DNA of 64,000 nt from Patescibacteria group bacterium (GTDB taxonomy: Bacteria > Patescibacteriota > WWE3 > JAMCXX01 > JBBTUG01): the NCBI GenBank assembly GCA_038063895.1, contig JBBTUG010000006.1, positions 6,701 to 70,700 of the forward strand, given 5' to 3'. Shown in pieces: positions 11,571 through 14,115 of this stretch; position 1 is the first letter of the stretch, and the number at the start of each line of letters is the position of its first letter. Under the pieces are notes generated by a model that made no database searches, was not told the origin of the DNA, and saw only the letters and a program-made list of their open reading frames with translations. A program made the translations under genes and the position numbers.

Positions 11571-12167
11571 ATGCCACACTCCATTCTACTAAGTAACTTA
11601 CCGCCTAGCGGCGGGTCTTTAACCCTTCGGGACAAAATTCTTTTGAGTCTTTTGTGTGTTGGGGCGATGGTTGAGACTACTTTAGCTGAAGCGTCTACGC
11701 CACAGACTATTGAATATGCTCTAAGTTCCTTGGAGCGGAAGGAGTTTATTCGAAAGAAGCGAGGTTCGATTAAGAGTACAATTTCTTACCTACTGGCCGA
11801 AAAACTTCTTCGGGCCAGCGGGTCGTATCGCAAGAGATCATTTCAGCTGACCGAGGAAGGGTTGAATACTCTTTTTTCCAAGTTTCCCACCCTTAAGTAT
11901 CGGAAGTTTAATTGGGACGGTCGTTGGCGTGTTGTGATTTATGATATCCGTGAACAGGATCACCGTCTCAGAGACCGGTTAAGAACAAGGCTTAAATCCC
12001 TCGGTTTTAAGTTTATGCAAAAAAGTGTTTGGATCTCGCCATATCCGATGGAAGCGGATCTGGAGGATTTTCTCCGAAAAGAAAATCTTTGGGGAAGAAT
12101 CTTCGTCTTTTCGGCGACTTTGCCGAAAAAGGAAAATCTAAAAATAATCCGATTATTTAATCTTTAA
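11571..12167 (+). CDS. PaaX-like family protein (winged-helix plus PaaX_C-like domain), paralog 1
   Basis: 'WDGRWRVVIYDIREQDHRLRDRLRTRLKSLGFKFMQKSVWISPYP' matches the PaaX C-terminal domain signature (W.G.W..V.Y.IPE..R..R..L...GFG.LQ...WISP). Confidence 0.5.
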   Translation: MPHSILLSNLPPSGGSLTLRDKILLSLLCVGAMVETTLAEASTPQTIEYALSSLERKEFIRKKRGSIKSTISYLLAEKLLRASGSYRKRSFQLTEEGLNTLFSKFPTLKYRKFNWDGRWRVVIYDIREQDHRLRDRLRTRLKSLGFKFMQKSVWISPYPMEADLEDFLRKENLWGRIFVFSATLPKKENLKIIRLFNL

Positions 12168-12249
12168 GGAAACACATACGATCGTGCGGCAAATATTAAG
12201 GGTTAAGAGTGGGAATTAAGGTAGTTAAGTATTGAGTGAAACAAATCAG

Positions 12250-12279
12250 TTGACAGTCGAGAGCCCCTCAGCCTATTAT
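12250..12279 (+). promoter_or_regulatory. Candidate promoter (TTGACA-18-TATTAT) driving the T-box leader
   Basis: 'ttgaca' at 12250-12255 and 'tattat' at 12274-12279. Confidence 0.35.
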
Positions 12280-12284
12280 GTCTT

Positions 12285-12425
12285 TGAAACTTAATATCGG
12301 TGATGAGGGGGTTGGCAGCCCGGAGCCGGAACGATAAAGAGTCTCGCTTCGGTCAGATGAGGCGGGGAACTAGGGTGGAACCGCCCAAGGATGGGTCCCT
12401 ATGCGTAAAAGCATGGGGTTTTTCG
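12285..12425 (+). promoter_or_regulatory. T-box riboswitch leader, glycine-type (T-box sequence plus intrinsic terminator)
   Basis: A canonical T-box motif 'AACTAGGGTGGAACCGCC' lies at 12368-12385. The 'UGGA' bulge fits discriminator U73 of tRNA-Gly. A candidate GGC specifier sits at 12313-12315 in 'uuGGCa'. A terminator hairpin 'ccctatgc/gcatgggg' followed by TTTTT lies at 12397-12423. glyS is downstream. Confidence 0.6.
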
Positions 12426-12469
12426 TTTTGGGGTGGACACTTAAAATTGGAAAGGAGGTGAGAAAAATG

Positions 12470-12688
12470 GGTAATCAAGCGGGTAACCAAGTTGGTGGTC
12501 CATTGGGTGATCGCTGGCTGAATTTCTTCTGGTACCTGGTTATGATTCTGGGGGTTGGTTCTTTAGTGGTATCTGGGTTTAACCAGGAGTTGGGCATGGT
12601 TGGTGTTGGGCTGACCTGTCTTAGCGTTGTTGTCTTCGCCGTCGTAGCTGCAGTCGGACTGGCAACAATAGGACCAATTGAGAAGTAA
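12470..12688 (+). CDS. Small (73 aa) two-TM membrane peptide with a strong SD, located between the T-box terminator and glyS
   Basis: 'ggaaAGGAGGTGagaaaaATG' is a near-perfect RBS. The product has two hydrophobic helices. The ORF-track version (12401..12688) begins inside the T-box terminator, so the start is trimmed to 12470. Confidence 0.4.
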   Translation, partial: GNQAGNQVGGPLGDRWLNFFWYLVMILGVGSLVVSGFNQELGMVGVGLTCLSVVVFAVVAAVGLATIGPIEK

Positions 12689-12707
12689 GAGGTTGAGAGA
12701 CAGCGAG

Positions 12708-12755
12708 GGGATGAAAGGATCTTGTGAAATCGTATGTCATCCCCTCGCTAGAAAC
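12708..12755 (+). other. 13-bp-stem perfect hairpin ('agcgaggggatga'...'tcatcccctcgct') immediately 5' of glyS
   Basis: Inverted repeat seen directly, with a 22-nt loop. It lies between the small ORF stop (12688) and the glyS start. Confidence 0.5.
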
Positions 12756-12792
12756 TATATCATTGGGTTTTTTTAGTGTAAAATTTAACTGT

Positions 12793-14115
12793 ATGGACGA
12801 ACAGACTGATTTAATGAAAAAAATTATTAGCCTGTGTAAACGCCGGGGATTTATCTATCCCGGCAGTGAAATTTACGGGGGGTTGGCCGGGACGTGGGAT
12901 TACGGGCCGCTGGGCACGGAGCTGAAACGCAATATTAAAAATGTGTGGTGGGAAGACGTGGTCCAAAAGCGGGAGGATATGGTAGGGCTCGATGCCGCAA
13001 TTATGATGAACCCGAAAGCCTGGGAGGCTTCAGGGCATGTCGAGGCCTTTACCGACCCGCTCGTCGAATGCAAGGTGTGCAATCAGCGTTTCCGGTCCGA
13101 TAAGCCGAAAGAAATTGAGGCGCACCAGACCGGTCACGAAAAGAAAAAGGAAAAGGTCGACTGGACGCAGCCGCAAAAGTTTAATCTTTTGGTTAAGGCG
13201 TATTTAGGCGTTATTGAAGGTAAGCAGTCCGAGATTTTCCTGCGCGGGGAGATTACCAACGGGGTTCAGGTTAATTTTAAAAATGTTGTTGATTCCACCC
13301 GCGTGAAAATACCTTTCGGCGTGGCCCAGATTGGGAAAGCTTTCCGGAACGAAATTACCCCCGGCAACTTTACCTTCCGCTCCCGGGAATTTGAACAGAT
13401 GGAAACCCAGTTTTACATTAAACCGGAAGCCGGGGAAGCGGAAAAGTGGTTTAACTATTGGAAAGAAGAACGAATGGGCTGGTATCAGCGGCTCGGAATT
13501 AATAAAGATAACCTCCGTTTCCGAGATCACGAACCGGACGAGCGGGCCCATTACGCGACGATGGCCACGGATGTAGAATACAAAGCGCCTTGGGGGTGGG
13601 ACGAGTTTATGGGAATCCACTACCGGGGGGAGTGGGATTTGTCCCGTCACCAGAAGTATTCCGGAGTGAGTTTGACTTATCGGGACCAGGAAACCGGGCA
13701 GACTTTTATTCCGCATGACGTTGAAACCTCCGCCGGGATTGACCGCTCCCTGCTTTTTTTCCTTCTTGACGCTTTTACGGAGGAGGAGAAACGGGTGGTC
13801 CTTAAACTCCATCCCAAACTGGCGCCTTTTAAAGCCGCGGTTTTTCCTCTAGTGGCGAACAAGGAAGACTTGGTTGCCAAAGCCAAAGACGTTTACCACG
13901 CCCTGCAAAGGAAATTTATGGTCGCCTGGGATGCCCGGGGCAATATCGGCAAACGGTACTTTTCCCAGGATGAGATCGGAACCCCCTGGTGTATTACGGT
14001 GGACTATCAGACCTTGCAGGATAACAGTGTAACCATCCGCGACCGGGATACTACCGGACAGGAAAGAGTGAACGCGGACGAATTAAGTACCCTTATCGGT
14101 TCCCGCCTTGAGTAA
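12793..14115 (+). CDS. glyS: Glycine--tRNA ligase (alpha2, single-chain type)
   Basis: 'KRRGFIYPGSEIYGGLAGTWDYGPLGTELKRNIKNVWW' is the class II GlyRS N-terminal signature. Likely start at 12793 or 12814. The ORF-track start at 12724 falls inside the hairpin. Confidence 0.85.
   Translation: MDEQTDLMKKIISLCKRRGFIYPGSEIYGGLAGTWDYGPLGTELKRNIKNVWWEDVVQKREDMVGLDAAIMMNPKAWEASGHVEAFTDPLVECKVCNQRFRSDKPKEIEAHQTGHEKKKEKVDWTQPQKFNLLVKAYLGVIEGKQSEIFLRGEITNGVQVNFKNVVDSTRVKIPFGVAQIGKAFRNEITPGNFTFRSREFEQMETQFYIKPEAGEAEKWFNYWKEERMGWYQRLGINKDNLRFRDHEPDERAHYATMATDVEYKAPWGWDEFMGIHYRGEWDLSRHQKYSGVSLTYRDQETGQTFIPHDVETSAGIDRSLLFFLLDAFTEEEKRVVLKLHPKLAPFKAAVFPLVANKEDLVAKAKDVYHALQRKFMVAWDARGNIGKRYFSQDEIGTPWCITVDYQTLQDNSVTIRDRDTTGQERVNADELSTLIGSRLE

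Follow-up and report, generated by a model that had tools for sequence, protein, structure and literature searches.

The region described here lies upstream of glyS, the gene of a dimeric-type glycine--tRNA ligase, in a stretch of 64,000 nucleotides (nt) from contig JBBTUG010000006.1 of a Patescibacteria group bacterium (assembly GCA_038063895.1), called the window in what follows. Between a near-consensus promoter and glyS, the plus strand carries a leader with the elements of a glycine T-box and its terminator, a small open reading frame (ORF) behind a Shine-Dalgarno (SD) sequence, and a perfect hairpin, and a sigma70-type promoter of the opposite strand lies between this hairpin and glyS (Table 1). 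We read this arrangement as a T-box-controlled bicistron of the small ORF and glyS, combined with a convergent antisense RNA, and we give this overall model a probability of about 0.6.

Table 1. Features of the region upstream of glyS, in positions of the window (aa, amino acids; CDS, coding sequence).
Feature	Positions	Strand	Description
T-box leader promoter	12250-12279	+	TTGACA, spacer 18 nt, TATTAT; 11/12 match to consensus
Ultrashort Stem I	12297-12329	+	C-stem UCGGU/GCCGG, kink-turn bulge GAU, tandem GA/GA, 3-bp stem GGG/CCC, 8-nt terminal loop
Linker and Stem III	12330-12371	+	12-nt linker ending in AAGAG; 10-bp Stem III at 12342-12367; then AA-CU
T-box discriminator and expression platform	12372-12429	+	Antiterminator 12372-12400; competing terminator 12397-12418; U-tract to 12429
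Small-ORF cassette	12450-12688	+	SD GAAAGGAGGTGA at 12450-12461; CDS 12467-12688, 73 aa, stop codon 12686-12688
Perfect 13-bp hairpin	12702-12749		Arms 12702-12714 and 12737-12749, 22-nt loop
Minus-strand sigma70-type promoter	12754-12782	-	-35 TTTACA 12782-12777, spacer 17 nt, TGA, -10 TATAGT 12759-12754; 10/12 match plus extended TG
glyS	12793-14115	+	Dimeric-type glycine--tRNA ligase, 440 aa; NCBIfam NF003211, 584 bits; Pfam HGTP_anticodon

Judged on its sequence, the leader element is a real glycine T-box, but a non-canonical one. Its 3′ half contains the T-box core AACTAGGGTGGAACCGCC (12368-12385). The antiterminator consists of a helix A1 (AGGG at 12372-75, with CCCU at 12397-12400 as its 3′ strand), a 7-nt bulge UGGAACC (12376-82) and a helix A2 (GCCCA-AGGA-UGGGU), and the competing terminator has the sequence CCCUAUGC-GUAAAA-GCAUGGGG, followed by the U-tract UUUUUCGUUUU. 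As the CCCU segment is common to the terminator and helix A1, the two structures are mutually exclusive. Upstream of the core, the succession of AAGAG, the 10-bp Stem III and AA satisfies the RRRxG-Stem III-AA discriminator signature, and Stem III carries compensatory changes in the alignment of the window with the homologous locus L001.

The 5′ half is much reduced. Stem I is predicted to be a kink-turn (K-turn) hairpin that displays a glycine codon in its terminal loop, GUUGGCAG, in which the specifier GGC (12314-12316) is followed by the purine A (12317). Just 3 bp and this 8-nt loop stand above the K-turn, and the distal Stem I platform for docking of the tRNA elbow is absent. Stem I and Stem III are a mere 12 nt apart, and both Stem II and the IIA/B pseudoknot are absent. 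A local scan with the Rfam T-box model RF00230 gave 30.7 bits (E = 6.5e-5) against a gathering score of 93; its alignment was confident in the 3′ half, and the 5′ half reached posterior probabilities of only 0.2-0.3. The joint pattern of K-turn, GGCA and T-box core had 0 matches in 100 shuffles of the window. The first-pass annotation, which had proposed a canonical T-box and a covariance-model scan with specifier assignment, was thus right about the glycine T-box core, the UGGA bulge and the terminator, but the architecture is minimal and scores below the Rfam threshold.

The 5′ boundary of the leader RNA was placed by comparison with relatives. When the homologous loci L001, L002, and L003 were aligned to the window, conservation stopped just upstream of the K-turn (CGGTGATGA), and a near-consensus promoter was found immediately 5′ of CGGTGATGA in both the window and L001. 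A longer "Stem I/II" drawn from 12223-12310 (CCCCTCA/TGAGGGG) by Rfam and by the minimum free energy (MFE) fold was rejected, as it overlaps the promoter and is not kept in L001, and as the promoters of related leaders abut the K-turn. Because conservation ends at the K-turn and the promoter lies directly 5′ of it, this upstream helix would be promoter DNA and not RNA. The leader transcript would start at about 12286.

The window leader shares with the glyQS/glyS T-boxes of Bacilli (RF00230; B. subtilis, G. kaustophilus, O. iheyensis) the GGC specifier followed by a purine, the K-turn at the base of Stem I, the lack of Stem II or IIA/B, a Stem III flanked by RRRxG and AA, the 7-nt bulge with UGGA for U73, an antiterminator/terminator switch with a U-tract, and a glycyl-tRNA synthetase (GlyRS) gene downstream. 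Unlike in these, only a K-turn with 3 bp and an 8-nt loop remains of Stem I, the terminal loop and not an internal one holds the specifier, the entire distal Stem I with the elbow-docking platform is missing, and a protein-coding cassette is placed between the switch and glyS. A short Stem I hairpin without elbow-docking motif is also found in actinobacterial ileS T-boxes with an "ultrashort" Stem I (PMC7583486). However, those are translational and sequester the SD, whereas the window element is glycine-specific and ends in an intrinsic terminator with a U-tract; it also lacks the S-turn in Stem II and the IIA/B pseudoknot of actinobacterial class II T-boxes, and the SD of its small ORF is unpaired in the MFE fold. 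A 2020 review defines the RRRxG and AA motifs that flank Stem III, describes the elbow-docking platform as required for rapid capture of tRNA in transcriptional T-boxes, reports ultrashort Stem I in translational T-boxes, where tRNA is bound only together with Stem II, and explains that glycine T-boxes manage without Stem II owing to the strong GGC:GCC pairing (PMC7583486). A glycine T-box without both the platform and Stem II is described neither in the 2024 glycyl T-box survey nor in the TBDB paper, and no report of T-boxes in bacteria of the Candidate Phyla Radiation (CPR) was found in the searchable literature.

The same architecture is widespread in public metagenomes. A pattern search whose only fixed elements were TGA, GGCA, GAGC and the T-box core found at least 118 loci, and in nearly all of them the K-turn 5′ strand directly adjoins; since GGCA was set by the pattern, its invariance among the matches is not independent evidence. 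Covariation in Stem I was computed on 86 distinct sequences among the matches listed, in the columns that the pattern had left free. The 3-bp stem was paired in 92.6% of cases, with double changes at 3 of the 3 pairs, and the covariation score of 0.612 compared with 0.194 after shuffling (0 of 500 shuffles reached the observed value) and with at most 0.225 in slid controls. The canonical (C) stem and the non-canonical (NC) stem of the K-turn covary as well. A sigma70-type promoter matching at least 9 of the 12 consensus positions lay within 60 nt 5′ of the K-turn in 55 of 64 members listed, against 3 of 64 in a control window; many of these promoters matched at 11-12 of 12 positions, and the median gap from the -10 element to the C-stem was 9 nt. 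Because promoters sit so near the K-turn across the class, there is no space for a longer Stem I. Stem III was present in 57 of 63 members listed, as judged by per-sequence folding, and a terminator hairpin followed by a U-run in 55 of the 63. Six members scored 35-54 bits with RF00230, all below 93; as members of the class score 30-54 bits against this threshold, the class is probably absent from threshold-based annotation, including that of human-gut genomes and CPR bacteria.

The class precedes dimeric glyS in CPR, and, with identities assigned by eye, a glyQ-like gene (GlyRS alpha subunit; read from its translation) in many human-gut contigs and a gene resembling that of serine hydroxymethyltransferase (SHMT) in L128, L134, L071, and L094. 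The CPR contig L104, which carries the same class of T-box, contains a tRNA-Gly(GCC) with U73 that matches the GGC specifier and the UGGA bulge. The minimal glycine T-box class is likely undescribed so far.

Several variants were seen within the class. The human-gut contigs L036, L041, L066, L095, L097, L115, L133, and L149, among others, combine the glyQ-like gene with a TTGACA-17-TATAGT promoter and a long terminator. In many CPR members (L005, L039, L042, L060, L073, L074, L079, L104, L140, L147), the loop of Stem III holds a conserved motif similar to UGGAU(A/U)AUCA; the second UGGA within this motif might in principle base-pair with the 3′ end of the tRNA. Stem III has been described as indispensable (PMC7583486); it is missing in 6 members (L020, L038, L044, L064, the first T-box of L136, and L148), in which a linker of 19-23 nt, AAUUAAGAAGCAAUU, leads from the K-turn hairpin to the core. 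Finally, in the glyS T-box of L012 (2350-2375; 73% GlyRS identity), the hairpin of Stem I deviates from the others (GATGAAGAGGTTGACCTGCGAGC), and its loop is without a GGN codon.

Downstream of the terminator, the SD of the small ORF, whose duplex energy is -18.7 kcal/mol, is the strongest among the 55 starts of the window that were compared (the next reaches -12.8, and the median is -5.5). AlphaFold gives its product two helices (residues 12-38 and 40-67; predicted local distance difference test, 66) that would form a hydrophobic two-helix hairpin. Homologues are P0002 (84%), P0003 (72%), and P0004 (E = 9e-10), the last of which was found when a profile was searched exhaustively against 1.84 billion representatives, with only two clusters recovered in total. 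Each homologue lies directly upstream of a 440-aa GlyRS gene and behind the same T-box. The differences counted at the three codon positions (8/3/14, 14/8/28, and 15/11/28) and the in-frame indels correspond to a pN/pS ratio (nonsynonymous over synonymous differences) of 0.28-0.33, with a synonymous excess at p = 1e-3 to 2e-7 (Fisher), and even P0004 retains the helical core. This substitution pattern indicates that the small ORF is a real gene whose amino-acid sequence is under purifying selection, and because the protein sequence is under selection, its product must matter. The small ORFs had no significant match in Pfam, NCBIfam, PADLOC, or PHROGs. Gene callers proposed an extended ORF of 91 or 95 aa (P0001) that starts inside the T-box terminator; we rejected it, as the extension (12401-12466) is not conserved and contains an in-frame stop in L150. 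Two relatives (L003, ~60-140, and L150, 750-840) have an additional insert of ~80 nt with two hairpins, which lies after the T-box terminator and before the small-ORF SD.

The presence of this gene varies among close relatives. Locus L059 (77% GlyRS identity) has a near-identical T-box and no small ORF, and keeps the module next to glyS. In L110 (80% GlyRS identity), the SD block and the hairpin are the same, and the ORF between them is an unrelated one of 64 aa with two helices; its homology with the window ORF was considered and rejected, as no BLASTP match was obtained and the blastn match covered only 10 nt. By this comparison of loci, the small gene is a lineage-restricted, exchangeable cassette in the leader.

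The ATG of glyS (12793) lies ~365-375 nt after the T-box terminator and 104 nt from the stop codon of the small ORF, and the same 440-aa start is also called in relatives. With an SD energy of -1.8 kcal/mol against the window median of -5.5, glyS is without SD, as is typical for this genome. Neither a plus-strand promoter of at least 10/12 nor a terminator was found between the small ORF and glyS, the synteny of ORF and glyS holds in every family member, and in L059 the same T-box stands directly before the glyS-proximal module. Co-transcription of the two genes as a bicistron is therefore the best reading, although it is deduced from the layout. These results agree with most of what the first-pass annotation had proposed here, namely a small ORF with two transmembrane segments and a near-perfect SD as the first coding sequence after the terminator, glyS about 370 nt from the terminator, and a peptide-glyS bicistron. 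The arrangement was also said to be unusual, and it indeed belongs to a minority of the related loci listed. As for the conservation of the small ORF in relatives, which had been suggested as a check, it is kept in four lineages but absent from one and replaced in the other of the two loci described above. The other reading offered at that stage, in which the peptide ORF is part of an extended regulatory leader, is weakened by the purifying selection (p = 1e-3 to 2e-7) and by the lack of a ribosome-controlled terminator after the ORF.

The hairpin between the small ORF and glyS had been placed at 12708-12755; its 13-bp stem is indeed perfect, but lies ~6 nt further left (Table 1). Its fold z-score is -3.4. 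Five lineages keep the hairpin, among them L001, where a compensatory change turns a C-G pair into U-A, and a consensus fold computed from five relatives shows no other conserved RNA structure in the interval from the small ORF to glyS. In L059 this position is taken by a different hairpin. A role as terminator was rejected, since no U-tract follows on either strand (AGAAACUAUAUC on the plus and GUCUCUCAACC on the minus strand) and since the terminator scan did not call it. It is not a repeated element either, as only its two arms match within the window. A helix that would sequester the start codon appeared in a single-sequence fold and is unsupported by the consensus fold of the five relatives.

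Two near-invariant blocks, (A)ACTATATC and TAGTGTAAA, lie 3′ of the hairpin; the 8-9 nt between them vary, and the overall spacing is kept. On the minus strand they correspond to the hexamers of the sigma70-type promoter. These hexamers and their spacing of 17-18 nt are kept, with a variable spacer, in 6 of 6 lineages of the clade that shares a GlyRS identity of at least 77%, including L059, and the arrangement occurs in none of the ~68 other distinct glyS upstream regions listed. The consensus fold contains no conserved RNA structure across the promoter blocks (12754-12782). A transcript from this promoter would start at about 12747 and, heading away from glyS, first traverse the hairpin and then enter the small ORF. 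Thus, in our preferred reading, the hairpin is probably the 5′ stem-loop of a conserved antisense transcript. A minus-strand ORF of 39 aa beginning in the hairpin was discarded, because the window and L001 do not share its frame (by eye).

We propose the following mechanism. Transcription would begin at the near-consensus promoter, and the RNA would fold at once into the minimal glycine T-box. The 8-nt loop of the K-turn hairpin would offer GGC-A to the anticodon of tRNA-Gly(GCC), the 12-nt purine-ended linker and Stem III would connect this hairpin to the antiterminator, and the UGGA bulge would pair with the uncharged U73-CCA end. Uncharged tRNA-Gly would thereby stabilize the antiterminator; otherwise the terminator would form. 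Both tRNA binding and read-through are predictions from the architecture of the leader. Read-through would yield a single transcript encoding the very efficiently initiated two-helix membrane protein of 73 aa and then the SD-less glyS. The convergent antisense RNA, whose existence and role we deduce from the promoter blocks, would anneal to the 3′ part of the mRNA from the small ORF, so that the leader transcript would be modulated or processed.

A number of observations weigh against this model. In the whole-window Rfam scan the T-box fell below the gathering score and was not reported, and no tRNA-Gly gene is present within the window. A T-box without platform and without Stem II contradicts current generalizations (PMC7583486), and its function is predicted. 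The small ORF is dispensable, being absent in L059, and replaceable, as in L110. Compared with L001, its synonymous divergence is low (pS 0.26, against a saturated 0.88 in the adjacent glyS; p = 3e-20), which suggests either recent exchange or an extra constraint at the nucleotide level. No terminator for the minus-strand transcript was found in the window (a terminator-like hairpin stands at the ORF start in L150), and the minus-strand promoter persists in L059, where there is no small ORF. Also, the conserved blocks outrun the hexamers by a few nt, and may have an overlapping role on the plus strand, for example in an A/U-rich glyS initiation region.

The most serious alternative, which we hold to be rather unlikely for the window, is that the small ORF acts in cis: its translation itself would matter, not its product, and tRNA-Gly status would control glyS translation by translational coupling. 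Ribosomes could open the hairpin that follows, protect the long leader against Rho or RNases, or move on to the SD-less start of glyS. In 38 of ~55 loci of the class with this GlyRS type, glyS lies 45-185 nt from the T-box core, and ~17 loci have inserts. Among these are at least five unrelated small hydrophobic ORFs, which take the same place in various CPR lineages and each have an SD of the AAGGAGGTG type, as well as SHMT-like genes. In L043, the insert between the glycine T-box terminator and glyS is a 105-aa ORF (362-679 of the oriented segment) with a GIY-YIG-like N-terminal motif recognized by eye.

In some of these lineages the small ORF has its own T-box. L005 and L074 contain a second glycine T-box, without U-tract, whose 3′ strand pairs with the whole SD of the small ORF, with an energy difference of 10.6 to 12.5 kcal/mol relative to the SD-open fold; a weaker version of this masking is found in L067 and L136. 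In lineages of the L005/L074 type, the predicted pairing puts translation of the small ORF itself directly under tRNA-Gly sensing. Tandem T-boxes and T-box-controlled operons are a known arrangement. Here, a terminator copy is followed by an SD-sequestering copy in L005 (~293 and 458), L074, L067, and L136, two copies precede an SHMT-like gene and glyS in L071 and L094, and the window has only one. Unlike in known tandem T-boxes, the second T-box of these relatives would be translational and act on a small non-enzymatic ORF. The second copy of L136 uses the specifier GGA. The small ORFs of L005, L074, L067, L136, and L042 contain 1 glycine in 295 residues (P ~1e-8 at 7%), as expected if they must be translated during tRNA-Gly limitation, so that ribosomes could finish the ORF while charged tRNA-Gly is scarce.

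These data favor an effect of translation in cis, as do the hairpin of L136, whose 3′ arm abuts the glyS ATG, and the contrast in the window between the very strong SD of the small ORF and the SD-less glyS. However, the protein of the window family is under purifying selection with its helical core kept to P0004, and the window ORF is glycine-rich (13 Gly codons, 17.8% against a background of ~7-8%), which is the opposite of the Gly-free group. Moreover, the distance from its stop codon to the glyS ATG is large, the hairpin leaves this ATG unoccluded, SD-less starts are the norm in the genome, and L059 and the 38 other loci have glyS without any such ORF. Translational coupling may thus be attractive for the Gly-free group, and is much less compelling for the window.

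The hairpin and the two blocks might instead act on the plus strand, in mRNA processing or stability, as the end of a T-box/small-ORF transcript, as an internal promoter, or as an enhancer of glyS initiation, and the minus-strand match would then be incidental. This is suggested by the length of the conserved blocks (~10-12 nt, longer than bare hexamers), by the A/U-rich, unstructured sequence preceding the glyS ATG, which would be expected if initiation is independent of an SD, and by a weak plus-strand promoter match in the window (ATGTCA-18-TATCAT, 9/12). We nevertheless consider it unlikely, since there is no plus-strand U-tract after the hairpin, the plus-strand promoter match is absent in relatives, and no conserved RNA pairing involves the blocks. 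Two blocks with a fixed spacing of 17-18 nt, a variable spacer and a TG extension fit a promoter, and on the minus strand only.

Another explanation would be a module similar to type I toxin-antitoxin systems, with the peptide as a membrane toxin induced on tRNA-Gly starvation and the antisense RNA as antitoxin. In txpA/RatA and bsrG/SR4, which have the type I layout, the antisense RNA overlaps the 3′ end of the toxin message. The window resembles these systems in a small hydrophobic ORF with a strong SD and in a conserved convergent promoter whose predicted RNA would overlap the 3′ end of the ORF message. The presence or absence of the cassette, its exchange for an unrelated ORF between identical flanks, the low synonymous divergence suggestive of recent exchange, and the very narrow distribution of the family would also agree with such a module. 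The window ORF has no sequence relationship with txpA/RatA and bsrG/SR4, and unlike them it would share a T-box-controlled promoter with an essential gene, which is atypical. The searches in Pfam, NCBIfam, PADLOC, and PHROGs revealed no similarity to any known toxin or defense family, the product with its 73 aa and two helices is larger than typical type I toxins, and the antisense promoter is kept in L059 without the ORF. For these reasons, a toxin-antitoxin function appears quite improbable to us.

That the small ORF is a glycine-sensing leader peptide, in which stalling at its Gly codons (5 of the 13 within the first 14 codons) would control a downstream terminator, in the manner of classical attenuation and in a layer added to the T-box, is very improbable, because no terminator follows the ORF and the hairpin is without U-tract, the Gly-rich N-terminus is shorter in L001 and L003 and nearly absent in L150, L003 has only 8.5% glycine and the positional analogues are Gly-free, and the peptide sequence is under purifying selection.

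Beyond the window, we tentatively regard the class as a previously undescribed, widespread transcriptional T-box that would contact tRNA-Gly only twice, through the GGC codon of the loop and the UGGA bulge, with no elbow docking or Stem II. In CPR, it would repeatedly have captured small-ORF cassettes wired to tRNA-Gly charging, some via a second, SD-masking T-box on Gly-free ORFs, and the window clade would pair the cassette with a conserved antisense promoter. We put this combined proposal somewhat short of even odds. A natural, widespread glycine T-box of the terminator type without platform and Stem II would define a minimal tRNA-sensing unit of ~130 nt. The recurrence of small membrane-protein genes between a glycine T-box and glyS, some with their own translational T-box, hints at an unrecognized link from tRNA-Gly charging to small-protein expression or translational coupling, in organisms whose genes are mostly SD-less. 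The main value of the locus lies in these two aspects, a T-box class of minimal architecture and small ORFs that are repeatedly wired to T-boxes.

The gene order around the leader is DUF4012, recO, a PaaX/Cas2-like gene, the leader, glyS, mraZ, rsmH, ftsL, and the gene of a penicillin-binding protein. The gene directly 5′ of the leader (11571-12167) encodes a PaaX central/Cas2-like domain protein (Pfam PF20803, E = 8.5e-22). The analysis assigned the genome to the Microgenomates group of the CPR. Relatives of the GlyRS were found in species-representative genomes labelled Roizmanbacteria, Levyibacteriota, Daviesbacteria and similar. In one of the related loci, L042, a fragment resembling the 5′ end of glyS (MENLMEKIVSLCKRR...; 645-700 of the oriented segment) precedes the full glyS, which suggests a local duplication.

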